UHGV virus genome: UHGV-0187309
Length of the DNA stretch: 44,350 bases
Reading direction: 5' to 3' (one strand)
Origin: a virus
Under the pieces are notes generated by a model. The model worked only from the letters and a program-made list of their open reading frames with translations. It searched no databases and was not told where the DNA came from. The translations under genes and the position numbers were made by a program. Each line of letters opens with the position of its first letter. Positions within the stretch are counted from its first letter, which is position 1. Below, in pieces: positions 10,602 through 35,173 of the stretch.

Positions 10602-13487
10602 GTGGTGATTTTATTGAGCAGACGTGTACTTTCCATCGACTTAGAGACCTATTCGGATGTAGACCTCCCGAACTGCGGTGTGTACCGCTATGTTGAGGGA
10701 GATTTCCATATCCTGCTGTTCGCATATGCATTTGACGATGAGGAGACAAAATGCGTGGATATGGCCTGCGGGGAGCAGCTCCCGGCAGAGGTCGTGGATG
10801 CGCTGCAGGATGACAGTATTATCAAATCGGCATGGAACGCACAGTTTGAGCGTACCTGCCTTTCAAAATATCTCGGTACGCAGATTTCTCCGGACTCGTG
10901 GCAATGCACGATGGTATGGGCGGCATCGCTTTCACTTCCGCTGAAGCTGGCAACGGCTGCACAGGCACTGAAAACTGCACAGCAGAAGGACGCTGTCGGT
11001 GAGCGTCTTATCCGTTATTTCTCTCTGCCCTGTAAGCCCACCAAAGCAAACGGCGGCAGAACAAGAAATCTGCCGGAACACGCCCCCGAAGACTGGAAGC
11101 TGTTCAAAAGCTACTGCATACAGGACGTGGAAACCGAGCGGGATATCCGCCGCAGGCTTGAAAAGTTCCCCCTGCTCCCGCAGGAATGGGACTACTACCA
11201 CATGGATCAGCGGATCAATGATCGCGGTATCCTGATCGACAAAGAGCTTGTGCAGCAGGCTATTATCTGCAATATGGCAATGTCCGAAGAAATGACAAAA
11301 CGTGCATACGCTCTGACAGGACTTGAAAATCCGAATTCCGTATCACAGCTCAAGGGATGGCTTGAGGAGCGTGGCATTGAGGTGGATTCCCTCGGCAAAA
11401 AGAATGTCGCTTCTCTTATCACAGACCTCGACAGGCACAGCGCAGACGGTGAGGCTCTGGATATGATGAAGCTGCGGTTGCAGATGGCAAAGTCCTCTGT
11501 GAAAAAGTATCAGGCGGCAGAGAGATACATCTGTCAGGACGGCAGGGCGCACGGACTGTTTCAGTTTTCCGGAGCTCAGCGAACACAGCGCTGGTGTCTT
11601 ACCGGCGATCATGAAATACTGACAGATAAAGGCTGGCTCAGGCTTGATAATTGGCAGGGCGGTAAGATTGCTTGTTGGAATCCTAATCAGGAAATGGTCT
11701 CGTTCCAGAAAGCGAACGTATTGTGCTTTGAATATGACGGTCCTATCTACCGCTATGAGGACAAACGGATCGATCAGATCAGCACGCCGGATCACAAAAT
11801 GCGTGTAAAGAAACGGTATAACGGCGAGTGGACGGATGACACTGTTGGCAATATGGAAAAGTATCGTCCTTCTATTCCGTTTACCGGACGCAGACAAACG
11901 ATGCCCGGCTTGGAGCACGCAGAACTGAGGGTACTGGTGATGACGCAGGCTGACGGCAGCTATAAAGAAGATGGAATGCTCTGCTTCCATTTCAAGAAGA
12001 AAAGGAAAATAGAACGGTGCAAACATCTGCTCAGACAGGCGGGCATTTATTTCACAGTGAATGAATGCAGGACAGATGGAACAACGCAGATCAAGATTCC
12101 TTCCCGTGAGCAGCCGATGTATCTAAGAATGTTTCATAACAAGACATTTGGAATGTGGCTTCTCGATGAAAGCCCGGATGTTTTCTTTGATGAGCTTCGG
12201 TATTGGGACGGATCGCAAAGCGCCAAAAACAGTATCCAATATACCACAACGAACAAAGTGAATGCCGATATTGTTCAGGCTTTTGCTCATACAAGTGGTC
12301 GCTGTGCAAAAATGAAAACGGTCATCCGGGATAAAGAACACCCGAATTGGAGCGATGCATACTATCTCGATATATGGCTCACTCCGAAAAACTGTCATGA
12401 AATCAGAGTGAAGCCGACTATCTCGCAATTCAGCGGCAAAATATACTGTGCTGAAACCCCAACCGGATACTTCCTTGTAAGACGTAATGGTAAAGTGTGG
12501 GTAACAGGAAACAGCGGGCGCGGCATTCAATTACAGAACCTGCCGCAGAACCACATCTCTACCCTCGATGAAGCAAGAGAACTTGTCAAAATGGGCTGCT
12601 TTGACATGATCGAAGCACTGTACGGCAATACGCCGGATATCCTGTCACAGCTTATCCGCACGATGCTCATTCCGAAGGACGGCTGTGAATTTATCGTGGC
12701 AGACTTCTCCGCCATTGAAGCGAGAGTACTTGCGTGGCTTGCCGGAGAACAGTGGCGGCTCGATGCCTTCAAGCGTGGCGAGGATATTTACTGTGCATCC
12801 GCATCGCAAATGTTCGGTGTTCCGGTCGTGAAGCACGGCATCAATGGAGAACTGCGGCAGAAAGGCAAGGTCGCTGAGCTTGCCTGTGGTTACGGAGGTG
12901 GCAGCGGTGCGCTGATCTCTATGGGTGCGCTGGATATGGGACTGAAAGAGGATGAACTTCCCGACATCATTTCAAGCTGGCGCGATGCAAACCCGGAGAT
13001 CGTGAAATTCTGGTATGCCGTGGAGAAAGCGGCGATCGAAACAGTCAAGGACCACGCGGAAAGAACGGTCGGCAGGATCGGTTTTCAGTTCTCTGCAAAT
13101 ACACTGTGGATCGTGCTGCCGTCCGGGCGCAGACTTGCCTACATCAAGCCGAGGTTACAGCCGAACCGTTTCGGGCGTATGGCGCTGACCTTTGAAGGAC
13201 TCGGTGCAAACAACAAATGGACGCGCGGTGAGACATACAGCGGCAAGCTGACGGAGAACATCACACAGGCGACCGCCCGTGACCTGCTTGCAGAGGCAAT
13301 GCACCGAATGGAGCTTGCGGGACTTGACATAGTCGGTCATGTGCATGATGAGGTCATTTTGGAAGTGCCGAAAAGACAATATACGGTCGATGATGTGTGC
13401 AATATCATGAATCAAAATCCGAGATGGGCAGACGGTCTGCCCTTATCATCTGCCGGATATACCGGCAATTACTACTTCAAAGACTGA
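10602..13487 (+). CDS. family A DNA polymerase (3'-5' exo + pol) interrupted by an intein
   Basis: Exo motif LSIDLETYS. Pol motif A IVADFSAIEARVLAWLAG, motif B RQKGKVAELACGYGGG, motif C GHVHDEVILEV. The real start may be TTG 10614 (AGGTGGTGA RBS). Confidence 0.9.
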   Translation: MVILLSRRVLSIDLETYSDVDLPNCGVYRYVEGDFHILLFAYAFDDEETKCVDMACGEQLPAEVVDALQDDSIIKSAWNAQFERTCLSKYLGTQISPDSWQCTMVWAASLSLPLKLATAAQALKTAQQKDAVGERLIRYFSLPCKPTKANGGRTRNLPEHAPEDWKLFKSYCIQDVETERDIRRRLEKFPLLPQEWDYYHMDQRINDRGILIDKELVQQAIICNMAMSEEMTKRAYALTGLENPNSVSQLKGWLEERGIEVDSLGKKNVASLITDLDRHSADGEALDMMKLRLQMAKSSVKKYQAAERYICQDGRAHGLFQFSGAQRTQRWCLTGDHEILTDKGWLRLDNWQGGKIACWNPNQEMVSFQKANVLCFEYDGPIYRYEDKRIDQISTPDHKMRVKKRYNGEWTDDTVGNMEKYRPSIPFTGRRQTMPGLEHAELRVLVMTQADGSYKEDGMLCFHFKKKRKIERCKHLLRQAGIYFTVNECRTDGTTQIKIPSREQPMYLRMFHNKTFGMWLLDESPDVFFDELRYWDGSQSAKNSIQYTTTNKVNADIVQAFAHTSGRCAKMKTVIRDKEHPNWSDAYYLDIWLTPKNCHEIRVKPTISQFSGKIYCAETPTGYFLVRRNGKVWVTGNSGRGIQLQNLPQNHISTLDEARELVKMGCFDMIEALYGNTPDILSQLIRTMLIPKDGCEFIVADFSAIEARVLAWLAGEQWRLDAFKRGEDIYCASASQMFGVPVVKHGINGELRQKGKVAELACGYGGGSGALISMGALDMGLKEDELPDIISSWRDANPEIVKFWYAVEKAAIETVKDHAERTVGRIGFQFSANTLWIVLPSGRRLAYIKPRLQPNRFGRMALTFEGLGANNKWTRGETYSGKLTENITQATARDLLAEAMHRMELAGLDIVGHVHDEVILEVPKRQYTVDDVCNIMNQNPRWADGLPLSSAGYTGNYYFKD
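11595..12512 (+). mobile_element. 306-aa intein with LAGLIDADG-like homing endonuclease domain inside the DNA polymerase
   Basis: Extein junctions RTQRW|CLTGDHEILTDKGW ... GKVWVTGN|SGRGIQLQNLPQN. Block B STPDHKM. DOD-like motifs LRVLVMTQADGSY and FFDELRYWDGSQ. Removing it restores the contiguous RW-SGRGIQLQNLP polymerase motif. Confidence 0.8.
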
Positions 13488-17081: not shown

Positions 17082-17144
17082 GCACTGAAAAGACGACAAA
17101 GCGGCGACAAAACGGTTACACCGCACTCTATGGAGGTGAAAACT

Positions 17145-17648
17145 ATGGCGCGTAAGAACAAACGCCTGAAAACAGAATACCACAGAGGTCTCGGTTTTGA
17201 TCCGCGAAAGTATATGACTTCCTACTCCCACCAAACTCGCTGTGAATCAATTCCGACTCCCGACCGTGCTCCAAAGCGCGGCGATATCTGGTTTGCGCGG
17301 CTCGGCACACATCCGAATTCCAGTGTGCAGGGCGGCACCCGTCCCGTTATCATCATTTCTAACGACCTCGGCAACGAACACGCTGACACCGTCAATGTTG
17401 TGCCGATGACCAGACACCTGAAAAAGCCGGAGCTGCCTTGTCACACTCCGCTTTCTCCCGGCAGCATTACCGATAGCAGACAGCCGCTTGAACTGTCAAT
17501 GGTGCTGGCGGAGCAGCTCACAACTGTCAGCAAGAACGCACTTCGCTATTATGCAGGTCATATTTCCGATGACGAAGCTATGAACCGCATCGAAACCGCT
17601 GTTATTGCGCAGCTCAGTCTTGAAAGGAGATATTCCAAATGCCTGTGA
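17145..17648 (+). CDS. PemK/MazF-family endoribonuclease-like toxin with ~45-aa N-terminal extension
   Basis: GGAGGTG RBS before ATG 17145. PKRGDIWFARLG...GGTRPVIIISNDLGNEHADTVNVVPMT is the PemK/MazF core. No antitoxin-like ORF upstream. Confidence 0.72.
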   Translation: MARKNKRLKTEYHRGLGFDPRKYMTSYSHQTRCESIPTPDRAPKRGDIWFARLGTHPNSSVQGGTRPVIIISNDLGNEHADTVNVVPMTRHLKKPELPCHTPLSPGSITDSRQPLELSMVLAEQLTTVSKNALRYYAGHISDDEAMNRIETAVIAQLSLERRYSKCL

Positions 17649-20068: not shown

Positions 20069-20107
20069 AAGTAGACTTTTCTCCGTATTTACGCTGTTTT
20101 CCGCAGT

Positions 20108-20196
20108 TGGGGCAGCGTGGGGCAAGTTTTTTCGGTGGTTATTATTATTACTTCTCTTTATATATATTACTATTTTTACTTGCCCCTACTTGCCCC
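20108..20196. repeat. ori-like element: inverted pairs of TGGGGCA(AG) iterons flanking a 52-bp AT-rich core
   Basis: TGGGGCA 20108..20114 and TGGGGCAAG 20118..20126. CTTGCCCC 20179..20186 and 20189..20196. Core 20127..20178 is ttttttcggtggttattattattacttctctttatatatattactattttta. Confidence 0.35.
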
Positions 20197-20374
20197 AAAT
20201 AAATAAAAACAATAGAAAAGATAAGAAGAATAGAGGATTTTCACTGATTTGAACCATTACCCATTTTGCACTGTTTTGAACCTTGCCCGATGCTGTCACT
20301 GACAAAGAGTGTGTAAGCGACAAAGCGTGGCAAGGTCAAAATCCAATAAACAATCATACAGGAGGAACACGAAT

Positions 20375-21469
20375 ATGAGAATCATTACTTCAGAACAGGT
20401 ATCCGCAGGACATCCCGACAAGATCTGTGACCAAATCGCGGATGCCATCGTGACAGACTGCCTTCAGCATGACCGCAGCAGTCGTGTTGCGATAGAGTGT
20501 CTTTTCAAGAACCGCTGTCTTGTGATCGCCGGTGAGCTGACCAGTACCCATGAGCCGGACTACAAGGCTCTGGTGCAGCAGGTGTTCGACCGTATCAACA
20601 ACGGCGGAGCTGAGAACAGCGATGCGGGACTTGACTACAAGCTGGACTTCACCGCCGATGATCTGGACATTGCGATTCTGGTCGATCACCAGAGCAATGA
20701 CATTGCGCTCGGTGTGAATGTCGGCGGTGCAGGAGATCAGGGTATGATGTACGGCTATGCGACCAACGAAACGCCGGAGATGCTCCCGATCCCCTTCGTG
20801 CTGGCTACCAGATTTCTGGAACTGCTGAAAGCCTACCCCTGCCGTATGCTGAAAGCCGATGCAAAGGCACAGGTCAGCTATGACTATGACAGCGGTCGCA
20901 TTACCACCTTCCTCTGCTCGGTGCAGCATACACACGATGTGGATGTTGAGGACTTCAAGCCCATCATCGAAAAGCTGATGGTGAGAACGGCAACCGAATA
21001 CGGGCTGAATACAGACTTTGCAAAGCTCGTCAACCCGACCGGCAGATTTGTCATAGGCAGTTCCTTTGCGGACTGCGGCGTTACCGGACGCAAGCTCGCC
21101 TGCGATACCTATGGCGGTATCGGGCATATCGGCGGCGGTGCAATGTCCGGCAAAGATCCGTCTAAGGTTGACCGCAGCGGCGCATATGCAGCAAGAAAAA
21201 TCGCAAGGGATATCGTCAGCGCCGGATATTCAGACAAGGCAGAGGTGCAGATCGCATACGCCATCGGTGTGGCAGAGCCCGTATCCGTGTATGTAGAGAC
21301 TTTTGGCACGGAGCATCAGGATACGGAGTTCATCAACCAGTATGTTCGTGAGAATTATGACCTCACGCCGAGGGGAATCATCGAAGGGCTGCATCTGCTC
21401 GATGTGGACTATAACGCCATTTCCGCATACGGACACTTCGGAAAACAGAACCTTCCGTGGGAACTATAA
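20375..21469 (+). CDS. metK: S-adenosylmethionine synthetase
   Basis: Start at Met23 of the track ORF (AGGAGGA RBS). ITSEQVSAGHPDKICDQIADAI, GAGDQGMMYGYA, GGGAMSGKDPSKVDRSGAY. Confidence 0.92.
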   Translation: MRIITSEQVSAGHPDKICDQIADAIVTDCLQHDRSSRVAIECLFKNRCLVIAGELTSTHEPDYKALVQQVFDRINNGGAENSDAGLDYKLDFTADDLDIAILVDHQSNDIALGVNVGGAGDQGMMYGYATNETPEMLPIPFVLATRFLELLKAYPCRMLKADAKAQVSYDYDSGRITTFLCSVQHTHDVDVEDFKPIIEKLMVRTATEYGLNTDFAKLVNPTGRFVIGSSFADCGVTGRKLACDTYGGIGHIGGGAMSGKDPSKVDRSGAYAARKIARDIVSAGYSDKAEVQIAYAIGVAEPVSVYVETFGTEHQDTEFINQYVRENYDLTPRGIIEGLHLLDVDYNAISAYGHFGKQNLPWEL

Positions 21470-21495
21470 TAAATTTTTTGAAATTTTTTTTGATT

Positions 21496-21589
21496 GGATA
21501 CCCACAAAATGCCCTCTCCCACGACAGTATATGAGGGGCGTTGTTCAGACCGACCACAAACACACTACAAACCAAGCGGGACTGACCGC
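21496..21589 (+). promoter_or_regulatory. copy 2 of the two-copy structured element
   Basis: GGATACCCACAAAA, then CCTCTC-ccacgacagtatat-GAGGGG (U-A replaced by U.G), then CAAACC.AAGCGG and GCGG/CCGC (21576..21589). Confidence 0.6.
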
Positions 21590-21632
21590 CCCTATCACTA
21601 TGCAACACCACTGTGGAAAGGAGGCAGAGACA

Positions 21633-21992
21633 ATGCCAAGCAGACCAAAAACACCATGCAGACACCCCGGCTGTGCTGCGCTCGTACCTTATGGCACCAA
21701 GTATTGTGACAAGCACCGTTCTCTCCATCCGGAGGACACACGCTCCGCAGGCAGTCGAGGCTATGGCACCACATGGAACAAGACCCGCAAGCGTTACCTT
21801 GAGACGCATCCGCTGTGCGTGGAGTGCATGAAGCAAGGGCGCTATATCAAGGCGACCGATGTCGATCACATCATGCCGCACCGAGGAGACAATGTTCTCT
21901 TCTGGGATCAGAGCAACTGGCAGAGCCTCTGCCACCGACACCACAGCATCAAGACCCGAAATGAGGATCACACCCCCGAGTACAAGTACTAA
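21633..21992 (+). CDS. HNH endonuclease
   Basis: Start at the internal ATG with AAAGGAGG RBS. CRHPGC...YCDKH zinc motif. DVDHIMPHRGDNVLFWDQSNWQSLCHRHHSIKT. Confidence 0.85.
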   Translation: MPSRPKTPCRHPGCAALVPYGTKYCDKHRSLHPEDTRSAGSRGYGTTWNKTRKRYLETHPLCVECMKQGRYIKATDVDHIMPHRGDNVLFWDQSNWQSLCHRHHSIKTRNEDHTPEYKY

Positions 21993-22450
21993 ACGCAAGC
22001 CACACTCACTATCGTTGCAGTTCAGGCAGTCTCAGGGGTGTACCTATGGGCGGGGCTGGGGGCTGGGGTTGCCCGCCGGGGCGGGTTCACTTCTCTGTGT
22101 GAAAGCGAACACAAGACCGTCGGCCCCTCTCGTGTGAAAAAACGCGAATTTGCAAGGGCCCCGGTCATTTGGGACCCTGACAGAGATATATTAGCTGTAA
22201 ATGAAATACTGTGCAGAAAACAGAAAACGCAGATTTTTCGTGCTTTTCCATATGCTGCCGTAGGAAACTGCGGCGGCAGGATACATACAGAGTTTCGTTA
22301 CAAAATGCACTGTAAAACGGCGAATTTACGTCAAAAAGCGATAGAATTAGCACATTTTTAGCGCCAAACCGCATTTTACAGTTTTATTCTTGGCGGAGCC
22401 CGTGTGGATACCGAAAACCGCATAAAATCAGAAGTTTCGAGGTGAATCAG

Positions 22451-22756
22451 ATGACAGATTCTCAAAAATATCAAGTACGAATTATGCGGATGCAGGGCAT
22501 TGGATATAAGGCAATAGCAAGGTCGCTGGGCTTGAAAACCAATCAGGTGCAGCTCTTTTGCAAGGCTCACGGTCTTGCAGGAGACAATCATCTGGTCGAT
22601 GTCAACTATCAAATCTGGTGTCAGCAAAACAACCGCTGTCCGGTCTGCGGTGCAAAGGTCACCCAGCCGAGGACAGGACGGCGAAAACGCTTCTGTTCCG
22701 GACGGTGCAGAACAAGATATTATCGTGAAAAACTGGAGGAATCAAAATGCTTGTAA
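22451..22756 (+). CDS. small HTH (sigma-70 r4/resolvase-like) + C-terminal zinc-ribbon protein
   Basis: GAGGTG RBS. RIMRMQGIGYKAIARSLGLKTNQVQLFCKAHGL. CPVCGAKV...RFCSGRCRTRYY. Confidence 0.6.
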   Translation: MTDSQKYQVRIMRMQGIGYKAIARSLGLKTNQVQLFCKAHGLAGDNHLVDVNYQIWCQQNNRCPVCGAKVTQPRTGRRKRFCSGRCRTRYYREKLEESKCL

Positions 22757-22932
22757 CCGTTTTGTGCCTTACTTACATGATGATCATCATCCTGATCCAT
22801 GCGATCTGGATATCTTCGATCATCAAGCATGACGGGAAATGCCACTACAACGACTGCGGTCACTGTCCGTATGACGCCTGGTGTCCGATGCAGGAGGAAA
22901 AACATGACACTGACAGAGAACTTCATTCGTGA
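22747..22932 (+). CDS. small predicted membrane protein with Cys-rich tail
   Basis: GGAGGA RBS 6 nt upstream. Hydrophobic N-terminus LVTVLCLTYMMIIILIHAIWISSII, then CHYNDCGHCPYDAWC. Confidence 0.45.
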   Translation: MLVTVLCLTYMMIIILIHAIWISSIIKHDGKCHYNDCGHCPYDAWCPMQEEKHDTDRELHS

Positions 22933-23389
22933 TGCGATACAGCTTGACAGCGGTGCAGAGGTCATGTACGGCAGCGATCAGATCTATGACACCTACCCCT
23001 GCCGCTTTCCGACTGTCGAGTTCCAGCTCATGGCAACGGATGCACTTGCGGAGGTCGCAGACCGCATCCGAATGGAGAAAGGCTATCTCCCGATGCATCC
23101 GAGGGACGGGCGCACGGACGATGTTGACAATGACGGCTGGTACGACTTTTATATCGGGATTAGCAAGCTCCCCAGCGATCATAAGGAATGCAAACTTGAC
23201 AGCAGCATTAGTTTCGTGGTCGTCAATTCAGATTCCGATGACAACGAGGATATGTACAGCATTGACCTGACTGAAACAGAGCAGGCGTATGTGTATGAAA
23301 TACTGAACCGGCAATGCCGGAGATATCACGGGAAGGACTGTGCCACGCTTCTGGCAGAGTCTGAAAAGGAGCTGATGGATACAGCATGA
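22904..23389 (+). CDS. hypothetical protein
   Basis: AGGAGGA RBS before ATG 22904. The stop overlaps the nrdD start (ATGA). Confidence 0.6.
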   Translation: MTLTENFIRDAIQLDSGAEVMYGSDQIYDTYPCRFPTVEFQLMATDALAEVADRIRMEKGYLPMHPRDGRTDDVDNDGWYDFYIGISKLPSDHKECKLDSSISFVVVNSDSDDNEDMYSIDLTETEQAYVYEILNRQCRRYHGKDCATLLAESEKELMDTA

Positions 23390-25527
23390 GGATAATAAAA
23401 CGAAACGGCGCTGAGGTGCCGTATGACTGCGAAAAGATACGAGCCGCAATATCAGCGGCAAATGATGAAGTGCCGGAGAAGATATCAGATACAGTGATCG
23501 GATTCATTGTCGGGAATGTAGAAAAACGCTGTCATGCCCTTGCAAGACCTGTCCATGTCGAAGAAGTCCAGGACATGGTTCTTGATGAACTGGACAAGGC
23601 CGAGGCTTACAAACTTGCACGGCACTACAGTGAGTACCGCCTGTGGCATGAGCAGCAGCGCCGTATGAACACCACCGACGGCAAGATTCTCAGTCTGCTG
23701 GAACGCAACAACGAGGAGGCAAAGCAGGAGAACGCCAACAAGAACCCCATCATCAACAGCACGCTCCGTGACTATATGGCGGGAGAAGTCAGTCGGGATA
23801 TATGTCGGCGCTTCCTGTTTCCGGAGGATGTGATCGCCGCCCATGATGACGGCATCATTCATGTGCATGACCTCGACTACATCGCAGAGCCGATGCACAA
23901 TTGCTGTCTGGTGAATCTGGAGGATATGCTTCAAAACGGCACAGTGGTATCCGGTACTATGATTGAGAAGCCGCACAGCTTTTCGACTGCCTGCAATATC
24001 GCAACGCAGATCATTGCACAGGTGGCATCAAATCAGTACGGCGGACAGACGGTATCTCTGGCACATCTTGCGCCTTTCGTGGATATCAGCCGACAGAAAA
24101 TTCGTGCCGAGGTGTTCGAGGATGTGAACTGCGACTGCGGTGCAAAGCTGTCTGAAAAAGAACTGGACTACATCGTAGAAAAGCGCGTGCGACGGGAAGT
24201 CAAGCGAGGCGTACAAACGATCCAGTATCAGATCAACACGCTCCTGACAACCAACGGTCAGACACCGTTCGTGACGGTATTCATGTATCTGGACGAGGCA
24301 CCGGAGGGACAGACCAGAGATGACCTTGCACTCATTATCGAGGAAACGCTGCTTCAGCGTATCGAGGGCGTGAAAAACGAGAAGGGCGTGTGGATCACAC
24401 CGGCATTCCCGAAGCTGATCTATGTTCTCGATGAGGACAACATTCAGCCCGGTTCCAAGTATTACTACCTCACCGAGCTTGCGGCGAAGTGTACCGCAAA
24501 GCGTATGGTTCCCGACTATATTTCCGCAAAGGTGATGAAACGTCTGAAGGGTGATGTGTATGCCTGCATGGGCTGCCGGTCATTCCTGACACCTTCTGCC
24601 GACCACAAATACTACGGCAGATTCAATCAGGGAGTCGTCACGATCAACCTTGTGGATGTTGCGTGTAGCGCAGGCGGAGACGAAGATAAATTCTGGCAGC
24701 TTCTTGATGAACGCTGCGAACTGTGCCGCAAGGCTCTGATGTGCAGGCATGAACGTCTGAAAGGTACGCCGTCCGATGTTGCACCGATCCTCTGGCAGTA
24801 TGGCGCACTTGCGAGACTGAAGAACGGTGAGGTCATTGACAATTTGCTGTATAACAACTACAGCACGATCTCCCTCGGCTATGCCGGCATCGCGGAAATG
24901 ACCTACCGCATGACAGGCTGTTCGCATACAGAGTCGGAGGGAAAATCCTTCGCCATTTCAGTGATGCATTTTCTGAACGATAAGTGCAGCAAATGGAGAG
25001 CTGAAAGCAATATCTCGTTCTCGCTATACGGCACGCCGATGGAATCTGTGACCTACAAATTTGCAAAGTGTCTGCAAAGGCGGCATGGTATTATTCCGCA
25101 CGTCACGGACAGGAGCTACATTACCAACAGCTATCATGTCCATGTGACAGAGCCGATCGACGCCTTCAGCAAGTTGTCCTTTGAAGCGGAGTTTCAGGAG
25201 CTTTCTCCCGGCGGTGCGATTTCGTATGTAGAAGTGCCGAACCTTCAGAACAACATTCCTGCGGTTCTGGCACTCATGAAACACATTTACGAAACGATTT
25301 TATATGCTGAACTCAACACTAAGTCCGACTACTGTCAGGCTTGTGGCTATGACGGGGAGATGCAGATCGTGGAAGAGGACGGCAAGCTGATCTGGGAATG
25401 CCCGAACTGCGGCAACCGTGACCAGCGGACAATGAATGTCTGCCGCCGCACCTGCGGATATCTCGGAACGCAGTTCTGGAATCAAGGGCGCACACAGGAG
25501 ATCGCAGAAAGGGTGATGCACCTGTGA
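23386..25527 (+). CDS. nrdD: anaerobic ribonucleoside-triphosphate reductase
   Basis: N-terminal ATP-cone (IIKRNGAEVPYDCEKI). C-terminal Zn site CQACGY...CPNCGN. Glycyl-radical tail RRTCGYLG. Confidence 0.93.
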   Translation: MRIIKRNGAEVPYDCEKIRAAISAANDEVPEKISDTVIGFIVGNVEKRCHALARPVHVEEVQDMVLDELDKAEAYKLARHYSEYRLWHEQQRRMNTTDGKILSLLERNNEEAKQENANKNPIINSTLRDYMAGEVSRDICRRFLFPEDVIAAHDDGIIHVHDLDYIAEPMHNCCLVNLEDMLQNGTVVSGTMIEKPHSFSTACNIATQIIAQVASNQYGGQTVSLAHLAPFVDISRQKIRAEVFEDVNCDCGAKLSEKELDYIVEKRVRREVKRGVQTIQYQINTLLTTNGQTPFVTVFMYLDEAPEGQTRDDLALIIEETLLQRIEGVKNEKGVWITPAFPKLIYVLDEDNIQPGSKYYYLTELAAKCTAKRMVPDYISAKVMKRLKGDVYACMGCRSFLTPSADHKYYGRFNQGVVTINLVDVACSAGGDEDKFWQLLDERCELCRKALMCRHERLKGTPSDVAPILWQYGALARLKNGEVIDNLLYNNYSTISLGYAGIAEMTYRMTGCSHTESEGKSFAISVMHFLNDKCSKWRAESNISFSLYGTPMESVTYKFAKCLQRRHGIIPHVTDRSYITNSYHVHVTEPIDAFSKLSFEAEFQELSPGGAISYVEVPNLQNNIPAVLALMKHIYETILYAELNTKSDYCQACGYDGEMQIVEEDGKLIWECPNCGNRDQRTMNVCRRTCGYLGTQFWNQGRTQEIAERVMHL

Positions 25528-25991
25528 ATTACTGCGGTCTGAATAAAAACGATATTGCCAACGGTGAAGGTGTGCGTGTGTCGCTGTTCGTGTCCGGATG
25601 CCGGAATCACTGCATCGGCTGTCACAATCCCGAAGCATGGGATTTCGGCTACGGTCAGCCGTTTACCAAAGAAACCGAAAAAGAGATCATCGAAGCCCTG
25701 CGTCCTTCTTGGATACAGGGCATTTCTATACTCGGCGGTGAACCCTGCGAGGAGGAAAACGAGCGTGTTCTGATACCGTTTCTGAAACGGATAAAACTTG
25801 AGTCTCCGAATTCGGACACTTGGCTGTTCTCCGGATACACCTACGAAATGCTTCAGAATGATGAGATTCTCAAATACATTGATGTGCTTGTGGACGGGCC
25901 GTTCCTGATGGAACAGAAGAACATCTCCCTTGCATTCCGGGGCAGTCGGAATCAACGAATCCTCCGATTAAGAAATGGGGTGCGTGTATGA
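25524..25991 (+). CDS. nrdG: anaerobic RNR activating radical-SAM protein
   Basis: GTG start overlapping the nrdD stop. NDIANGEGVRVSLFVSGCRNHCIGCHN. Confidence 0.9.
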   Translation: MNYCGLNKNDIANGEGVRVSLFVSGCRNHCIGCHNPEAWDFGYGQPFTKETEKEIIEALRPSWIQGISILGGEPCEEENERVLIPFLKRIKLESPNSDTWLFSGYTYEMLQNDEILKYIDVLVDGPFLMEQKNISLAFRGSRNQRILRLRNGVRV

Positions 25992-26305
25992 GAGCCAGAC
26001 TGAAACCGCCGGGAGATGCTGTCCGCTGCGATGCCTGCGGATGTGCCTTTGTGCCGGAGCCGAAAATGCAGCGTGAGGGAGAGATCGAATACAGCTTCCT
26101 CAACTGTGATTACTGTGGCAAAGCGTATATCGTGTCTGTGACCGATGCCGCACTCCGCCGGAGCATCCGCAAGTACCGGACGCTTGCCGAAAAGCTGAAG
26201 GGCAAGCCGTTGAGTGAAGATACGCTCCGTGAGGTCACGGCGCTGAAGGATGCGAACACAAAAAGAGCCGCAGAGCTGCGGCAGATGTATATTCGGGAGG
26301 GATGA
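25988..26305 (+). CDS. hypothetical zinc-ribbon protein
   Basis: CDACGC...17 aa...CDYCGK. ATGA overlap with nrdG. Confidence 0.6.
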   Translation: MRARLKPPGDAVRCDACGCAFVPEPKMQREGEIEYSFLNCDYCGKAYIVSVTDAALRRSIRKYRTLAEKLKGKPLSEDTLREVTALKDANTKRAAELRQMYIREG

Positions 26306-26306
26306 G

Positions 26307-27578
26307 ATGAAAACAGCAGAACTTCGCATGATCCCTGTCTCGGAGCTGAAGCCTGCGGAATACAATCCGCGTAAAAAGCTGAAGCCCGGCGACAAGGAAT
26401 ACGAGAAGATCAAAAACAGCATCGAGGAATTCGGCTTTGCCGACCCGCTTGTTGTCAACGCCGACATGACGATCATCGGCGGACACCAGAGACTGACCGT
26501 AGCAACGGCGCTCGGTTACACGGAAGTTCCGTGTGCGGTGGTGGACATCGACAAAGTCCGTGAGAAGGCACTGAACATTGCGCTGAATAAGATCACGGGT
26601 GCATGGGACGAGAATCTTCTGGCGGAACTTCTCGAAGATATCCAGAGCAGCGATTTCGACCTCGGCAAGACCGGCTTTGATCCGCCGGAGATCGAGCAGC
26701 TTTTCAATGCCGTTCATGACAAGCAGGTCAGTGAGGACAGCTTCGATGTGGAGGAGGAGCTGCAAAAGCCGACATTCTCGCAGCCGGGAGATATCTGGAT
26801 TCTCGGCAGGCACAAAGTCATCTGCGGCGATAGTACAATCGCAGAGACATACACCAAGCTGATGGACGGGCAGAAGGCAAACCTCGTCCTGACCGATCCT
26901 CCGTACAATGTGGATGTTGAGGAAACTGCCGGAAAGATCATGAATGACAACATGAGCGACAGTGATTTCTATAGCTTCCTGCTTTCCGCTTACAAGTGTA
27001 TGTATGACAGTCTTGCCGATGACGGCAGCATTTATGTATGGCACGCCGACACCGAGGGGCTGAACTTCCGCAGAGCGTTCAAGGAGGCAGGCTTCCAGCT
27101 TTCTGGCTGCTGTATCTGGAAGAAGAATTCTCTGGTGCTGGGCAGAAGCCCCTATCAGTGGATTCATGAGCCGTGTCTCTTCGGGTGGAAACAGAAGGGC
27201 AAGCATCAGTGGTATGCCGACCGCAAGCAGACAACTGTATGGGAGTATGACAAGCCCAAGAGCAGCCCCGATCATCCGACCACAAAGCCTATCCCGCTGA
27301 TGGCGTACCCGATCAAGAACAGCACCATGACCAACGGCATCGTTCTCGATCCGTTCCTCGGCAGCGGTTCGACACTGATCGCCTGTTGCGAGACAGACCG
27401 TGTTTGTCGGGGCATCGAGCTTGATCCGAAGTTCGTGGATGTCATTGTCAAGAGGTATCTGGCATGGTGCCAAGAGAAGCAGACCGCCGAGGTCGCATAT
27501 GTCATTCGTGATGGACAGAAGCTCACCTATGAGGAGGCTATCGCAGCGATGCCGCAGGGCGGTGATGCAGTTGAGTGA
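26307..27578 (+). CDS. ParB-like nuclease domain fused to N6-adenine/N4-cytosine DNA methyltransferase
   Basis: ParB-N motifs IPVSELKPAEYNPRK and IIGGHQRL. MTase motif IV LVLTDPPYNV. Motif I VLDPFLGSGSTLIA. Confidence 0.88.
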   Translation: MKTAELRMIPVSELKPAEYNPRKKLKPGDKEYEKIKNSIEEFGFADPLVVNADMTIIGGHQRLTVATALGYTEVPCAVVDIDKVREKALNIALNKITGAWDENLLAELLEDIQSSDFDLGKTGFDPPEIEQLFNAVHDKQVSEDSFDVEEELQKPTFSQPGDIWILGRHKVICGDSTIAETYTKLMDGQKANLVLTDPPYNVDVEETAGKIMNDNMSDSDFYSFLLSAYKCMYDSLADDGSIYVWHADTEGLNFRRAFKEAGFQLSGCCIWKKNSLVLGRSPYQWIHEPCLFGWKQKGKHQWYADRKQTTVWEYDKPKSSPDHPTTKPIPLMAYPIKNSTMTNGIVLDPFLGSGSTLIACCETDRVCRGIELDPKFVDVIVKRYLAWCQEKQTAEVAYVIRDGQKLTYEEAIAAMPQGGDAVE

Positions 27579-28350
27579 TGTGAAGTGTGTATTATATCAC
27601 GACAACTTCCAAAACTTCAAAGGCTACAGCATCCCGAAAGCGCAGCTCGTCATCGCTGACATCCCGTACAACATCGGCGGCGATTTTTACGCAAGCCGCC
27701 CCGACTGGTATGTGGACGGTGACAATCAGAACGGCGAAAGCAGCAAAGCACATAAGGCGGCATTCCATACAGATTACAGCTTTAACATTGCTGAATACTT
27801 CGCCTTCTGCAACCGACTGCTCAAAAAAGAGCCGCCAAAAGGTGAAAAGGATGCGCCGTGCATGATCGTGTTCTGTGCCTTTCAGCAGATACCGGAAGTC
27901 ATCCGGCAGGCGGAGAAATACGGCTTCAAGAAGTATCAGTTTTTGTGTTTTATGAAGAATTACAGTCCGCAGGTGTTGAAGGCGAACATGAGGATCGTGG
28001 GCGCAACGGAATACGCTCTGGTGCTGTACCGGGGCAAGCTGCCGAAATTCCGAAACACGGATGAGAATGGCAAACACCACATGATCTTCGACCATTTTGA
28101 CTGGATGCGGGACGGCAAGGATATCCCGAAGATACATCCTTCGCAGAAGCCGGTAAATCTCCTGAAACGGCTGATCGGGATATTTACCGACGAGGGTGAT
28201 GTGGTCATCGATCCCTGCGCCGGTTCCGGCTCAACGCTGCGTGCGGCGAGGGAGCTTGGCAGACACAGCTACGGCTTTGAAGTCAGCCGGGATTTTTATA
28301 ATAAAGCCTGTGAACTGATGCTTGGGGAGGATACCGATGACGAAGCATGA
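27565..28350 (+). CDS. DNA methyltransferase (beta-class N6A/N4C type)
   Basis: Motif IV variant IADIPYNIG, then motif I VIDPCAGSGSTLRAA. Start uncertain (ATG 27565, TTG 27571 or GTG 27580). Confidence 0.78.
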   Translation: MQLSDVKCVLYHDNFQNFKGYSIPKAQLVIADIPYNIGGDFYASRPDWYVDGDNQNGESSKAHKAAFHTDYSFNIAEYFAFCNRLLKKEPPKGEKDAPCMIVFCAFQQIPEVIRQAEKYGFKKYQFLCFMKNYSPQVLKANMRIVGATEYALVLYRGKLPKFRNTDENGKHHMIFDHFDWMRDGKDIPKIHPSQKPVNLLKRLIGIFTDEGDVVIDPCAGSGSTLRAARELGRHSYGFEVSRDFYNKACELMLGEDTDDEA

Positions 28351-28582
28351 ATGTGCGGTCGTGACCGCTTACACAGAGATTTCTATGCTCAAGGGCGACG
28401 ATCTGAAATATCTGTATGACTATCTTTCCGGCTTTATCGGCAGACCGGTGTATACACACGAGATTTCTGCTGTGGTGATGGCTTACAGAGAGCAGATCAG
28501 GGAGGACTTCCTCGATCTGTGCAGGAACGCAAAGGAGGCGGATGATGGATCAGAAACACTTGACTCTCGGCAGCTTATTTGA
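28337..28582 (+). CDS. hypothetical protein
   Basis: GGGGAGGA RBS. 81 aa. Overlaps both neighbouring MTase genes. Confidence 0.5.
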   Translation: MTKHECAVVTAYTEISMLKGDDLKYLYDYLSGFIGRPVYTHEISAVVMAYREQIREDFLDLCRNAKEADDGSETLDSRQLI

Positions 28583-31145
28583 CGGCTCCGGTGGCTTTCC
28601 GCTTGGCGGCATCCTTGCAGGGATCGAGCCGAAGTGGAGCAGCGAAATTGAACCATTCCCGGTGCTTGTCACGCACAAGCGGCTGCCGCAGGTGAAGCAC
28701 TACGGCGATGTATCCAAACTGAACGGAGCAGAGCTTCCGCCGGTGGATATCATCACCTTCGGCAGCCCGTGTCAGGATCTGTCCATAGCGGGCAAGCGCG
28801 CCGGAATCCATGACGGTGATCGGTCAAACCTGTTCTTTCAGGCGATCCGCATCATCAAAGAAATGAGGGATGCAACAAATGGACGATATCCGCGATACTG
28901 CGTCTGGGAAAATGTCCCCGGCGCTTTCTCATCCAACGGAGGAAACGACTTCAAGGCTGTCCTCGAAGCAGTTATCGGAGTTAAAGAAAAAGGGATCGAG
29001 GTGCCTGCGCCTGAAAATCACAGATGGGCAAAATCAGACGTATATCTGGGAGACGGATGGAGCGTGGCTTACCGAGTTTTCGATGCTCAATACTGGGGTG
29101 TCCCCCAACGCAGAGCAAGAATCTACCTTGTCGCAGATCTTGCTGGTGGAAGTGCCGGAGAAGTATTATTTAAGTCCGAAGGCGTGTCTGGGTATACTCC
29201 GCAGGGCTTCCGTGCGTGGCAAGGAGCTGCCGGAGGTGCTGAAGAAGGCACTGGAGAGACAGGCGGGCGGTCTGACGCTGGAGGTGGAACCCTCTGCCTG
29301 AATACACAGGGCAACAGCGGCGTCGGCATCACCGAGAACAAGGCTCTCGCACTGGTCGCACAGGATCATGGCAATCATCCGGCTGTGCTTCATGCGGTCG
29401 GTATCGACGGCTACAATGCTGCGGTCACCGATGATACGGCAGCAACGCTTGGTGTGAACTGCGGAATGTCCACAGGCAGAAACGGTGTCCTGCAGGCGGC
29501 GGGATTTTCCACAGAACACAGTGCAAAAGCAAGGAGCATCGGCTACGAGGAAGAGGTATCTCCCACACTTCGAGCCGGTGTTGTTCCGGCGGCAATGGAG
29601 TTATATGAAAATCATGGGCAGGACAGCAGATTCAGAGGACCTTTGGATGTAGCACAGCCTGTGACTGCTACCTACGGCATGGGCGGCAACAATCAGCCGC
29701 TTGTGGTAGAGAACAATCCCACGGACGGCAGAGCGAAGATCAATCCCGACGGTGTGTTTCAGACGCTCTGCGGACGAGCCGGAACAGGCGGAAACAACAC
29801 GCCGCTTGTTGCTGAACCGGTCACGCTGAAAATCAGGTCGGGATGTGAGGGCGGTGGCAAGGGTGCTTTATGGCAGACCGACAAGTCTGCTACGCTCGGC
29901 ACAAACAATGACCAGAGTGTATTTGTTCCGTTCGTCAAGGGAACACGTCCGCACTCTGCTGAAGAGGGGCAAACATGGAAACCCGGCGAGGTCGCCAATA
30001 CACTGAATACCTTTGATGTCGGTGAAAGTCGCTGCAATGAACTTGTGGTGGAAGAGCCGCAGATCAGGGCTTTCGGTGTATGCAGCAAGCATTCCAATGC
30101 GATGATGTCCGACAATCCGCACAGCGGATTCTATGAGGCGACCACAAGCAGAACGCTCGACCAAAGTGGTGGAAATTCTGTGACATCGAATCAGGGCGGC
30201 ATCTGCGTGGTAGCACCTGCGCCTGAAACCTTCGATGTGCGTTTCACATCAGACGGTACAAAAAACGCTCGTGGGCATTGCTATCCGACAGACATCTCCC
30301 GATGCCTTGATACGAGCGAGGGATCGCCAGACTCGAATCACGGCGGTGTCGCTGTGGTGGCTCTTGAACCGGGGGCTGCATCACGTGTCGGCGGTCATGT
30401 ATACAGTGACGGCAAAAGCGGTACGCTTCGAGCCAATGCCGGCGATAATCAGCAGGCTGTTGTGGTCGCCGAGCCGGAGACCTATGCTCTGCAAGGCTCG
30501 ATGATCGGTCGTGCCGACAAGAACGGTCCGCAGGGTGATGGCATCAACGAGGATGTGTGCTTTACGCTCAATACATCGGACAGACACGCCATTGCCGCAC
30601 CTGATCCGTCCTTCACAATTTCCCGCGACAACCATTTTGCCGTTTCGGAGGATGTATCCGTTACAGCCGTGGCAAGAGGCCCTGCGGCAGTCGCAGCACC
30701 GGCAGACCACTATTGCACCAGTAAGAATTCGCATCATACGGTCGCCGCCCATGAGCAGGCAAACACGCTGGTCGCTTCCGACTGGAAGGATCCGCCGCTT
30801 GTGAACGACCTTCCGAATGACGAGCCAGTATATATCGTTCGCCGCTTGACTCCGGTTGAGTGCGCCAGATTGCAGGGATTCCCTGACTGGTGGTGTGCCG
30901 ACCTTGCAATTACTGATCCTTCCGATGAGGAGATCGCCTTCTGGACGGAGGTCTGGGAGACATGGCGGCAGGTCACAAATCCCAAGGGCAAGCCGAAAAC
31001 GGAAAAGCAGATCCGCAAATGGCTGGCTGATCCGTACACGGATTCAGCGGAGTACAAGCTGTGGGGCAACGGTGTCTCAGAGCCGGTCGTATACTTCGTG
31101 CTTTCCGGCATCGCATGGGCAGCGCAGAGAGATACACAAAAGTGA
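28542..31145 (+). CDS. dcm: DNA (cytosine-5)-methyltransferase with ~570-aa repetitive variable (TRD) region
   Basis: Motif I LFDGSGGF, IV FGSPCQDLS, VI CVWENVPG, VIII QRRARIYLV, IX RRLTPVECARLQGFP, X LWGNGVSEPV. About 1.7 kb lies between motifs VIII and IX. Confidence 0.9.
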   Translation: MMDQKHLTLGSLFDGSGGFPLGGILAGIEPKWSSEIEPFPVLVTHKRLPQVKHYGDVSKLNGAELPPVDIITFGSPCQDLSIAGKRAGIHDGDRSNLFFQAIRIIKEMRDATNGRYPRYCVWENVPGAFSSNGGNDFKAVLEAVIGVKEKGIEVPAPENHRWAKSDVYLGDGWSVAYRVFDAQYWGVPQRRARIYLVADLAGGSAGEVLFKSEGVSGYTPQGFRAWQGAAGGAEEGTGETGGRSDAGGGTLCLNTQGNSGVGITENKALALVAQDHGNHPAVLHAVGIDGYNAAVTDDTAATLGVNCGMSTGRNGVLQAAGFSTEHSAKARSIGYEEEVSPTLRAGVVPAAMELYENHGQDSRFRGPLDVAQPVTATYGMGGNNQPLVVENNPTDGRAKINPDGVFQTLCGRAGTGGNNTPLVAEPVTLKIRSGCEGGGKGALWQTDKSATLGTNNDQSVFVPFVKGTRPHSAEEGQTWKPGEVANTLNTFDVGESRCNELVVEEPQIRAFGVCSKHSNAMMSDNPHSGFYEATTSRTLDQSGGNSVTSNQGGICVVAPAPETFDVRFTSDGTKNARGHCYPTDISRCLDTSEGSPDSNHGGVAVVALEPGAASRVGGHVYSDGKSGTLRANAGDNQQAVVVAEPETYALQGSMIGRADKNGPQGDGINEDVCFTLNTSDRHAIAAPDPSFTISRDNHFAVSEDVSVTAVARGPAAVAAPADHYCTSKNSHHTVAAHEQANTLVASDWKDPPLVNDLPNDEPVYIVRRLTPVECARLQGFPDWWCADLAITDPSDEEIAFWTEVWETWRQVTNPKGKPKTEKQIRKWLADPYTDSAEYKLWGNGVSEPVVYFVLSGIAWAAQRDTQK

Positions 31146-32089: not shown

Positions 32090-32998
32090 ATGGAAATCAA
32101 GTTCAATATTGAAAAGAGCCAGCGCAAGGCACTGGCACAGAAAATCGGCGAGCTGACAGGAGCAGAGGTCAAGTACCTCGGTGTACCGGGCTGCAGATAC
32201 CAGATCGACTTCTTCACCCTGGACAAAAACGCAGTCCTCAGTTTCAGCGACCGCATCGACACAGATATCGTGGAGAAGGTACTGAATGGGCTTGCAGAGG
32301 CAGGATATGAAAGCAAAACAGTAGCACCGCCGGAAGAAACGGATGCTTCGGCTGAATCAGAGCCGGATATCCCTGACGAACCGAGCAGCGGATTTCCGCT
32401 GCTCGCAAGCATCAGCTTCCCGATTGCAGAGCACACGGTGCAGAGCCTTACAAACCTTATCTGCATGATCCACTCCCGCGGCGCACTTCTCAGCAAGGCG
32501 ACCGGCGGACAGTTCTTCGCAGACAAGAGCCTCGCCGATGCGATCCTCGATGACAAGACCTTCCGCAGCATCCACGAGCTTATCGCCTACATCAGAGTAT
32601 GGGAGGAAACGAATCCCGAACTGAAGGGCATCCGTTTCGCCGATGACAAGCTGATCTTTGACGGCTTCGGTGCAGCGCAGGATGCCGAAACGGTGCAGAC
32701 CTTCACCAAGCTCGCCACAGCCATGAACAGGATGGCGATCACGCAGAAACGTGTGCAGGCAAAGGATGTCGATGACAGCAACGAAAAGTACGCACTCCGC
32801 ATCTGGCTGATCCGCCTTGGGCTGAACGGCGCAGACTGCAAGGTTGACCGCAAGCGCCTCATGGCTCCGCTTTCCGGACACACCGCATTCCGCAACGATG
32901 CGGAGCGTGTGCGCTGGGAGGCAAAGCAAAAGGCAAAGCGTGATGCTGCCAGAACCGAACTGACCGAGGAGGATGAAAACGATGCAGTTTCCGAATGA
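32090..32998 (+). CDS. hypothetical protein (C-terminal module shared with the amidoligase)
   Basis: 302 aa, GGAGG RBS. Acidic linker. C-terminal EKYALRIWLIRLGLNGADCKVDRKRLMAPLSGHTAFRN. Confidence 0.75.
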   Translation: MEIKFNIEKSQRKALAQKIGELTGAEVKYLGVPGCRYQIDFFTLDKNAVLSFSDRIDTDIVEKVLNGLAEAGYESKTVAPPEETDASAESEPDIPDEPSSGFPLLASISFPIAEHTVQSLTNLICMIHSRGALLSKATGGQFFADKSLADAILDDKTFRSIHELIAYIRVWEETNPELKGIRFADDKLIFDGFGAAQDAETVQTFTKLATAMNRMAITQKRVQAKDVDDSNEKYALRIWLIRLGLNGADCKVDRKRLMAPLSGHTAFRNDAERVRWEAKQKAKRDAARTELTEEDENDAVSE

Positions 32999-33427: not shown

Positions 33428-34372
33428 ATGACTGAGAAAACCGCACAGCAGATCAACAGAATGAAGGAGCAGACCATCGGGGTTGAGATCGAGATGAACA
33501 ACATCACCCGCAAGGCTGCCGCAAAGCTCGCCGCCGACTTCTTCGGCACGAACCGCTACGAGGACACGGCCTGCCGCAACGGCTACGAAACCTACAGTGC
33601 TTGGGACGCACAGGGACGCGAGTGGAAATTCCAGAAGGACGTCAGCATCGCAGGCCCCGACAGCGAAAAGTGCGAACTGGTCACACCGATCCTGCACTAC
33701 GCAGACATCGAAACCCTGCAGGAGCTTGTGAGAAGGCTCAGAAAGGCAGGAGCGCGCAGTGATTACACGCGGGGATGTGGAGTCCACTGCCACATTGGAG
33801 CCCAGGGACACACACCGCAGAGCCTCAGAAACCTCGCAAACCTTATGGCAAGCCACGAAACCCTGATCGCCGAGGCAATCAGAGTAGACCAGAGCAGAAT
33901 GCACCGCTACTGCAGAACAGTTGACCCGAGATTCCTTGAACAGCTCAACCGCAAAAAGCCCACCACGATGGCACAGCTTGCGGACATCTGGTACGGCGCA
34001 CAGGGCTGCGAATACGGCAGAACCCACCACTACAACGACAGCCGCTATCACATGCTCAACCTCCACGCTACCTTCACCAAAGGCACGGTCGAGTTCAGAC
34101 TTTTCCAGTTCGCACCGCCTTCCAACGGCAAGCAGAACGGGCTCCACGCAGGCAAGCTCAAGAGCTACATTCAGCTCTGCCTCGCAATGAGCCAGATGGC
34201 AAAGGACCTGCGGAGCGCCAGCCCCAAGGAACAGCAGAAGGAAAACAAAAAGTTCGCCATGCGGACTTGGCTGATGAGAATGGGATTCATCGGGGATGAA
34301 TTCGCAACGGCGAGAGAGGTCCTCACTGAGAACCTTACGGGCGACAACAGCTTCCGCTTCGGCAGATCTTAA
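33428..34372 (+). CDS. putative amidoligase (Amidoligase_2, glutamine-synthetase-like fold)
   Basis: QTIGVEIEMNNITR...GREWKFQKDVSI...CELVTPIL...GCGVHCHIG...TVEFRLFQ. Pattern recalled from the Amidoligase_2 family. Confidence 0.75.
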   Translation: MTEKTAQQINRMKEQTIGVEIEMNNITRKAAAKLAADFFGTNRYEDTACRNGYETYSAWDAQGREWKFQKDVSIAGPDSEKCELVTPILHYADIETLQELVRRLRKAGARSDYTRGCGVHCHIGAQGHTPQSLRNLANLMASHETLIAEAIRVDQSRMHRYCRTVDPRFLEQLNRKKPTTMAQLADIWYGAQGCEYGRTHHYNDSRYHMLNLHATFTKGTVEFRLFQFAPPSNGKQNGLHAGKLKSYIQLCLAMSQMAKDLRSASPKEQQKENKKFAMRTWLMRMGFIGDEFATAREVLTENLTGDNSFRFGRS

Positions 34373-34705: not shown

Positions 34706-35173
34706 ATGAACAAGAAAAAATACTACATAGCCTACGGCAGCAACCTCAACATCCGCCAGATGCGATTCCGCTGCTCAGGCGCAAAGCCCATCGGCATTTC
34801 CGCGATTCCTGACTACGAACTGCTCTTCAAGGGCAGCAAGACGGGAGCGTACCTCACCATCGAGCCGAAGGACGGCGGGCTTGTTCCGGTCGCCGTGTGG
34901 GAAGTGACAGCCGACGATGAGAAGCACCTCGACATCTACGAGGGCTACCCGAACTTCTACTACAAGAAGGAAGTCCGCCTGCCAATCAGGCTGGCAAACG
35001 GCAAGACCAAAAAGGTCACGGCATTTGTCTACATCATGCACGAGGAGCGTGAGATTGCGATCCCGTCAATGACCTACATCCGCACCTGCGAGGAAGGCTA
35101 CCGCAACTTCGGCTTCGACACCAAGTTCCTTGATGCCGCCTACGAGATCAGCGCAAAGGAGGTACAGCGATGA
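34706..35173 (+). CDS. gamma-glutamylcyclotransferase (GGCT/AIG2-like)
   Basis: YYIAYGSNLNIRQMRFRC...LVPVAVWEVTADDEKHLDIYEGYPNFYYK. Confidence 0.82.
   Translation: MNKKKYYIAYGSNLNIRQMRFRCSGAKPIGISAIPDYELLFKGSKTGAYLTIEPKDGGLVPVAVWEVTADDEKHLDIYEGYPNFYYKKEVRLPIRLANGKTKKVTAFVYIMHEEREIAIPSMTYIRTCEEGYRNFGFDTKFLDAAYEISAKEVQR

Follow-up and report, generated by a model that had tools for sequence, protein, structure and literature searches.

Phages that carry a gene for S-adenosylmethionine (SAM) synthetase close to genes for DNA methyltransferases (MTases) are already on record. In the streptococcal phage Φ1207.3 the genes run primase, SNF2, SAM synthetase (orf29), HNH (orf30), orf31, ParB-fused methylase (orf32), C-5 methylase (orf33), TerS and TerL, and Iannelli et al. 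(2014) proposed that the synthetase supplies the methylase (PMC4260502). De Jonge et al. (2024) reported SAM synthetase (K00789) in 58.9% and Dcm (K00558) in 67% of 1032 Candidatus (Ca.) Heliusvirales genomes and suggested a role against restriction-modification; that paper gives the frequencies alone, without an analysis of co-occurrence, catalytic sites, phylogeny or regulation (PMC11283538). The Streptococcus agalactiae prophage 12/111phiA has a homologous metK adjoining an endonuclease gene and is the sole member of the clade with genetic data, the phenotype being aggregation and biofilm formation of the lysogen, not methylation or restriction (PMC8223999). Phage T3, with its SAM lyase (SAMase), also manipulates the host SAM pool around methylation-based defence, and it reportedly destroys SAM and blocks MetK as a measure against SAM-dependent restriction and BREX (10.1101/2023.02.27.530186). 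Here we analyze a metK gene in a 44,350-nucleotide stretch of the virus genome UHGV-0187309 (the window, at its full length), whose predicted product, unlike the T3 proteins and unrelated to them, would make SAM.

The module orf29–orf33 of Φ1207.3 and its relatives (Φm46.1, phiD12 and the Javan prophages) has the same order as the window and continues through TerS and TerL to the portal gene. The Φ1207.3-type MetK is 57%–58% identical to that of the window and has the same short form (353 amino acids [aa]), and the TerL proteins are ~72% identical. The window differs in having a third MTase, an inserted pair of genes for NrdD and NrdG (NrdDG), a Dcm of 867 rather than 388 aa, a different order of the primase and SNF2 genes, and a host that is probably a member of Oscillospirales rather than a streptococcus. 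Both the gene arrangement and its interpretation have already been published for this phage lineage, and the finding is accurate but ordinary. We propose that the short-form MetK, passed on together with the genes for replication and DNA modification in temperate Firmicute phages of the Ca. Heliusvirales type, sustains SAM for phage DNA methylation. We infer this physiological role from the identity and integrity of the enzyme, its synteny with MTases and the absence of a SAM riboswitch, and would give the proposal an even chance of being right.

The phage MetK and its clade

The metK gene of the window is complete, as a preliminary description of this DNA had it. The open reading frame (ORF) at 20309..21469 (+) holds an internal ATG at 20375, and this is likely the start codon of metK because an AGGAGG ribosome-binding site lies 8 nucleotides (nt) upstream of it. 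Translation from 20375 gives 364 aa and a stop codon, so that the 365 aa given earlier was one too many. The three MetK domains of Pfam, S-AdoMet_synt_N (PF00438), S-AdoMet_synt_M (PF02772) and S-AdoMet_synt_C (PF02773), occur in order and span residues 3–363 (E = 2.7e-24, 3.8e-25 and 3.3e-55, respectively), and the protein scores 385.5 bits against the NCBIfam metK equivalog TIGR01034 (cutoff 309.4). The same residues align with solved MetKs (E ~1e-90), including E. coli 1fug/1rg9 (E = 7.8e-90), and phrog_1569 is matched at profile positions 2–345 of 346 (435 bits, E = 3.5e-130). PHROGs gives this family the label "unknown function", and NatCom Heliusvirales records (e.g., PV036428.1) call phage MetK "peptidase"; such labels are a systematic annotation error.

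In an alignment to E. coli MetK, 18 positions with catalytic, metal-binding or substrate-binding roles are conserved in the window protein and show no variation across 85 unique phage MetKs (H14, D16, K17, E42, E55, Q98, D118, D163, K165, F230, D238, R244, K245, D249, K265, D266, K269 and D271 in E. coli numbering). The E. coli reference sequence used agrees with the PDB-search alignment of 1fug/1rg9. C239, which is non-essential, is the only checked position that varies among phage MetKs. Catalytic residues missing on alignment had been named in the preliminary description as a sign of an inactive protein, and at these 18 positions none is missing. Phage metK is under strong purifying selection, with a median dN/dS (pairwise, Nei-Gojobori) of 0.09 over 533 pairs of phage genes and of 0.07 for the pairs that include the window. 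Because all catalytic residues are present and invariant and dN/dS is ~0.07–0.09, the enzyme looks fully functional and catalytically competent.

These results bear on whether the gene might be a decayed copy, a host metK at a prophage edge or a mis-assembly. The sole feature of the gene that would suit such a reading is its shorter length, and some database matches labelled as phage are indeed suspect: the "phage-encoded metK" of Helicobacter records was set aside, since prophages there integrate beside the host metK and the genes in question are probably flanking host genes. The window gene, however, is complete, encodes every catalytic residue and evolves under strong purifying selection, 80 independent viral contigs have metK flanked by phage genes, and the clade is distinct from cellular MetK in the tree described below. 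Together these observations effectively refute an inactive or non-phage gene, to which we assign a negligible probability.

Cellular MetK belongs to the same three-domain family, has all the catalytic and ligand residues and aligns with the phage form over its full length. Identity between the two is 41%–46% (42%–45% full-length), and the phage form is 15–40 residues shorter, with trimmed loops and the C-terminal tail lost. The window protein, 45% identical to E. coli MetK, lacks E. coli residues 1–2, 83–84, 111–115, 148–151, 180–182 and 202 and the C-terminal tail 371–384, and has an 11-residue insertion near E. coli residue 84. The earlier impression that it is shorter than typical bacterial MetK is correct: cellular MetKs from 68 named genomes are 367–407 aa long, all but one of them 378–407 aa. 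Lengths across 107 phage copies run from 345 to 372 aa, with two at 391 aa.

A scan of one genome per species found nine genomes with short-form copies (345–357 aa, 53%–73% identical to the window MetK). Identities to the window protein show a gap, with short-form sequences at 53% or more and cellular MetKs next at 46% or less. In a neighbor-joining, distance-based tree, 31 short-form sequences (from gut phages, Streptococcus phages and prophage copies) split from 69 cellular MetKs, among them those of Ruminococcus, Oscillospiraceae, Acutalibacteraceae and Faecalibacterium, in 60 of 60 bootstraps. On these sequence comparisons, short-form MetK is a separate phage-lineage clade (phrog_1569) and not a recent host capture. 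The window MetK falls in this clade by profile match, length, tree grouping and gene context, and has no SAM riboswitch. Because the short-form sequences separate from cellular MetKs, likely-host families included, we would favor one origin, followed by inheritance along with the phage module, over repeated capture from current hosts.

A short-form MetK also occurs in Oribacterium parvum ACB1 (locus L169). It is 352 aa long, 58% identical to the window MetK and nested in the phage clade; its gene (9998–11056) lies among chromosomal genes, trk-like genes preceding it and tpi, pgk and gap-like genes following it, as judged from ORFs read by eye. This copy points to a gene transfer either from phage to cell or from cell to phage.

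SAM riboswitches and the region upstream of metK

The classic control element of metK in Firmicutes is the S-box (SAM-I) riboswitch. With the Rfam model, RF00162 was found ~100–400 nt upstream of cellular metK in six of seven loci. A SAM-I covariance model of our own, built from six Rfam RF00162 matches, placed the element upstream of 40 of 71 cellular metK genes, and upstream of metK in 14 of 16 genomes from Ruminococcus, Oscillospiraceae, Acutalibacteraceae and Faecalibacterium, the likely host families. The same model gave no match at E ≤ 1 in 163 phage loci (~2.5 Mb). No SAM riboswitch was detected upstream of the window metK, either with our SAM-I model or with Rfam at the gathering score and, near metK, at E ≤ 5; with Rfam, RF00162 was likewise absent from six other phage loci, two Streptococcus ones included. 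Rfam matches to any RNA element near the window metK amounted to noise (snoZ155 and mir-172, E = 1.5–4). The sole short-form metK with a SAM-I element is the chromosomal Oribacterium parvum copy, whose riboswitch lies at 9782–9897 of L169. Since the phage loci have no riboswitch whereas cellular metK has one, phage metK is predicted to be free of the SAM-I feedback that shuts off cellular metK at high SAM. This contrast is the one point for which we found no earlier description in the literature on the lineage, and it is a small addition.

Freedom from the riboswitch could also be taken to mean that phage MetK keeps SAM synthesis going when the host MetK is repressed, inhibited or out-competed, be it by the SAM lyases or MetK inhibitors of rival phages or by an undiscovered SAM-depleting host defence. 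SAM is a contested metabolite, as phage T3 reportedly degrades it and inhibits its synthesis (10.1101/2023.02.27.530186). The phage MetK is, moreover, strongly diverged from the cellular enzyme (identity ≤46%, trimmed loops and tail). Its sequence, however, gives no sign of inhibitor resistance, and SAM lyases have been described in phages that infect other hosts. Nor did we find any host system described in the literature that defends by limiting SAM, which leaves the earlier suggestion that MetK counters host SAM limitation with no known target. We consider a role under SAM shortage highly unlikely. Phage MetK might also be a regulation-proof isozyme that does not respond to SAM feedback, perhaps resists product inhibition or rivals' SAM lyases and MetK inhibitors as well, and overrides host SAM homeostasis; phage hypermethylation would be guaranteed, and the SAM-dependent defences of a lysogen would go on acting against superinfecting phages whose target is SAM. 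This possibility strikes us as distinctly unlikely.

The intergenic region between the primase gene and metK contains a terminator-like hairpin and a set of repeats. Tandem 8-mers (TGGGGCA / GGGGCAAG) at 20108–20126 are followed by their reverse complements CTTGCCCC, present twice at 20179–20196, in a 10-bp register, and the inverted tandem pairs, all within 20105–20198, flank a 52-nt spacer of 83% A+T. In relatives all four repeat copies change in concert (GGGGCAAG, GTAGCAAG or GTCGCAAG). Such concerted repeats look like iterons or operator sites, and the repeat region could be an origin adjoining the primase gene. The sequence CTTGCCCC occurs eight times in the window versus 1.3 expected; five copies lie outside the intergenic region, at 28031 (minus strand), 37080, 37121, 37987 and 39313. 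A consensus scan, whose overall counts are no better than those of shuffles, found no plus-strand promoter-like site between primase and metK. Terminator-like sites number 18, compared with 14.1 ± 4.1 in shuffles, and are not above chance.

Do the methyltransferases depend on metK?

A tblastn search with MetK found a homologue in 138 phage records, 90 of them from Streptococcus phages. For a metK-anchored sample, an IMG/VR scan gave 441 relatives, and 80 loci were fetched for synteny. Gene order in these 80 loci is nearly invariant: PolA, SNF2, MazF-like, D5 primase, MetK, HNH and a small protein, followed by an optional NrdD-NrdG pair, the ParB-fused MTase, an optional MT2-DUF7736, an optional Dcm, two amidoligases, GGACT, TerS and TerL. 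The distance from metK to a downstream HNH gene is at most 1.5 kb in 67 of 74 viral loci. Among the 42 metK-anchored loci with at least 9 kb of downstream sequence, MTase genes number one or more in 39 and two or three in 34, and the ParB-MTase is present in 39. The position of metK just upstream of the MTases is conserved across Streptococcus and gut phages.

If MetK sustains SAM for phage DNA methylation, the block would be transcribed in lytic replication and phage MetK would be made irrespective of the SAM level of the cell. The enzyme would convert host methionine and ATP to SAM, raising or sustaining the methyl-donor pool, and would keep the donor available at a time when one to three phage MTases are modifying numerous genome copies and NrdG adds a minor demand. 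Methylation of progeny DNA would then be more complete, and the DNA better protected from restriction in the current host and in the next.

The preliminary description had likewise suggested that MetK could sustain self-methylation. The intact enzyme, its conserved place before the MTases and the lack of a riboswitch speak for this; the MTases, however, prove to be independent of metK, and the association with Dcm is weak. Both points come from a TerL-anchored sample, in which relatives were picked irrespective of metK by means of the Φ1207.3 TerL and 34 loci had enough upstream sequence. MTases were counted with N6_N4 and C5 profiles built on the loci themselves, by which other classes could be missed; a search seeded with E. 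coli Dam gave no match to a Dam-type (alpha-class) MTase in the loci. The ParB-MTase is present in all 34 loci and metK in 20.

Several observations weigh against the proposal. The ParB-MTase occurs without metK in 14 of the 34 relatives, six of which also have Dcm, so host SAM is evidently sufficient for the MTases. Dcm is found in 16 of 20 metK-positive and in six of 14 metK-negative loci (odds ratio 5.3, p = 0.036, Fisher test); the link is weak, as p rises to 0.068 without loci of identical HNH and the test ignores shared ancestry. At most, metK tends weakly to accompany a larger MTase load. The operon structure, too, depends on consensus scans whose counts are no higher than expected by chance. 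SAM is reported to be a cofactor for BREX defence and Type I restriction (10.1101/2023.02.27.530186); since these systems use SAM, more of it could also help the SAM-dependent defences of the host, and extra SAM would not be purely beneficial to the phage. Finally, the sole genetic study of a homologue, that of 12/111phiA, reports lysogen phenotypes and not restriction, with inconsistent complementation (PMC8223999). As many relatives keep their MTases without metK, the gene is an accessory booster that the MTases can do without, a status that is a small addition to the published picture.

The same genetic study invites a reading as lysogenic conversion, in which MetK expressed from the prophage alters SAM-dependent physiology of the host (AI-2 signalling, polyamines, cell-surface traits) to the benefit of the lysogen and not of phage DNA methylation. 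When the metK region of the prophage in S. agalactiae 12/111 was deleted, flocculation and long chains were lost and there was less glycocalyx and biofilm; plasmid-borne metK partly restored aggregation, though besides the inconsistent complementation secondary mutations were found (PMC8223999). The 306-bp intergenic region with its hairpin, which separates metK from the primase gene, would make separate regulation of metK possible. The location of the gene tells against this reading: metK is part of the block of replication and modification genes, on the lytic strand, away from a lysogeny module or attachment site, and its neighbors (HNH, MTases, NrdDG) have lytic-cycle functions. We regard lysogenic conversion as unlikely to be the main role.

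NrdG is a fourth SAM user in the block, overlooked by the preliminary description, and SAM might be needed mainly to let it switch on anaerobic deoxynucleotide (dNTP) synthesis by NrdD quickly. The two genes do lie between metK and the MTases in the window, and the 42 metK-anchored loci include 26 with NrdD and 24 with NrdG. In class III reductases, though, each activation of NrdD by NrdG costs a single SAM, and the glycyl radical formed lasts for many catalytic cycles, which makes the demand for SAM tiny. Independence of metK from nrdDG is also seen in part of the lineage: nrdDG is absent from all 34 TerL-anchored loci of the Φ1207.3-like sample, including the 20 that are metK-positive, and metK therefore does not need NrdG. 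We reject NrdG as the main reason for metK on the basis of these 20 loci and consider such a role extremely improbable.

Neighboring genes, phage lineage and host

The block from metK through Dcm lies entirely on the plus strand, with no opposite-strand gene within 20375..31145 (Table 1). All three MTases listed in the preliminary description are found downstream of metK on this strand by Pfam matches and motifs. In the ParB-MTase, DPPY precedes FLGSGS, the beta-class motif order, and DPPY is present in 48 of 50 cases. In the second beta-class enzyme motif IV reads DIPY in place of the canonical (D/N/S)PPY, as it does in 27 of 27 relatives. The translation of Dcm has the motifs FDGSGG, PCQ, ENV and QRR at its N-terminal end and RRLTPVE and GNGV at its C-terminal end; between these separate sets runs a long variable region of ~550 Gly/Ala-rich residues, and the Dcm proteins of relatives are 388–796 aa long. 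Repeated target-recognition modules in this giant Dcm were considered and dropped, as a BLAST self-comparison gave no internal repeats. The small protein downstream of the HNH gene has no Pfam match and by eye looks like a helix-turn-helix protein with a Cys-rich (zinc-ribbon-like) stretch. NrdD is much longer in some relatives (1009 aa in L015 and L022–L024, 1647 aa in L055 and L056), which suggests that these proteins carry an intein or other insertions.

Table 1. Positions of metK, its neighbors and other features in the window
Feature	Position	Strand	Evidence or remark
ORF at left end, 365 aa	608..1705	-	no Pfam or PHROG match
MazF/PemK-like toxin-domain protein	17130..17648	+	just upstream of primase gene or metK in most relatives
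Primase-metK intergenic region, 306 bp	20069..20374		hairpin, repeats, metK ribosome-binding site
Terminator-like hairpin	20088..20121		
metK, SAM synthetase (methionine adenosyltransferase), short phage-type form	20375..21469	+	Pfam, TIGR01034, PDB, phrog_1569
HNH endonuclease	21624..21992	+	Pfam HNH, phrog_144
Small protein, phrog_2308 (no annotated function)	22442..22756	+	between HNH and ParB-MTase, kept across lineage
NrdD, anaerobic ribonucleoside-triphosphate reductase, 713 aa	23386..25527	+	Pfam NRDD (4.3e-192), Gly_radical, ATP-cone
NrdG, radical-SAM activase of NrdD	25524..25991	+	Pfam Fer4_12 (2.5e-48), Radical_SAM; CRNHCIGC (CxxxCxxC) in translation
ParB-N-fused beta-class N6/N4 DNA MTase	26307..27578	+	Pfam ParB_N and N6_N4_Mtase
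Second beta-class N6/N4 DNA MTase	27565..28350	+	Pfam N6_N4_Mtase (3.3e-27)
Dcm, C-5 cytosine DNA MTase, 867 aa	28542..31145	+	Pfam PF00145, two stretches
Amidoligase	32090..32998	+	phrog_2443
Amidoligase	33428..34372	+	Pfam Amidoligase_2
GGACT/AIG2-like cyclotransferase	34706..35173	+	
TerL, 888 aa	40371..43037	+	LAGLIDADG domain at residues 303-369

Family searches of the window proteins give the gene content of a temperate member of Caudoviricetes. A LexA-like repressor, thymidine kinase and SRAP are encoded on the minus strand, and the rightward genes run DUF2800 nuclease, Enc34-type SSB, PolA, DUF932, HNH, SNF2 helicase, MazF-like protein, D5-type primase, metK, HNH, NrdDG, three MTases, two amidoligases, GGACT, TerS and TerL. 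No integrase was identified among the window proteins by Pfam and PHROG searches. The two amidoligases and the cyclotransferase form a trio downstream of the MTases that is kept across the lineage. TerL is 888 aa long versus ~530 aa in relatives; as its alignment to them is split into two pieces and a LAGLIDADG domain is present, it probably contains an intein of ~340 aa, ending ...THN|S.

At the nucleotide level the closest deposited phage is Acutalibacteraceae phage NatCom_991 (75.7% over 7% of the query), and overall similarity is low. Protein-level comparison shows a gene order shared with NatCom_18656, which carries Ca. Heliusvirales in its taxonomy line, with identities of 72.7% for TerL, 70.5% for TerS, 65.6% for the ParB-MTase, 63.9% for HNH, 60.9% for MetK and 55.9% for PolA. 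By pairwise identity, TerL of the window is homologous to that of Ca. Heliusvirales, and it is also ~72% identical to TerL from Streptococcus prophages (Javan phages, Φm46.1, phiNJ3). The nine marker genes of Ca. Heliusvirales include those for the major capsid protein, a helicase and an ssDNA-binding protein; the window has genes for PolA, SNF2 helicase, Enc34-type SSB, TerS and TerL and stops at 44350, before the portal and capsid genes. The host is probably a member of Oscillospirales, because a MetK named from Ruminococcus flavefaciens is 87% identical to that of the window and the best nucleotide match is an Acutalibacteraceae phage.

If MetK does sustain SAM for phage DNA methylation, a widespread lineage of gut and streptococcal phages would manipulate the methyl-donor pool in the direction opposite to the strategy of T3. 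Such phages would feed their own methylases instead of starving host restriction, and SAM would be a two-way battleground. The consistent loss of the SAM riboswitch would then offer a concrete reason why the phage copy matters although the host has a metK of its own.

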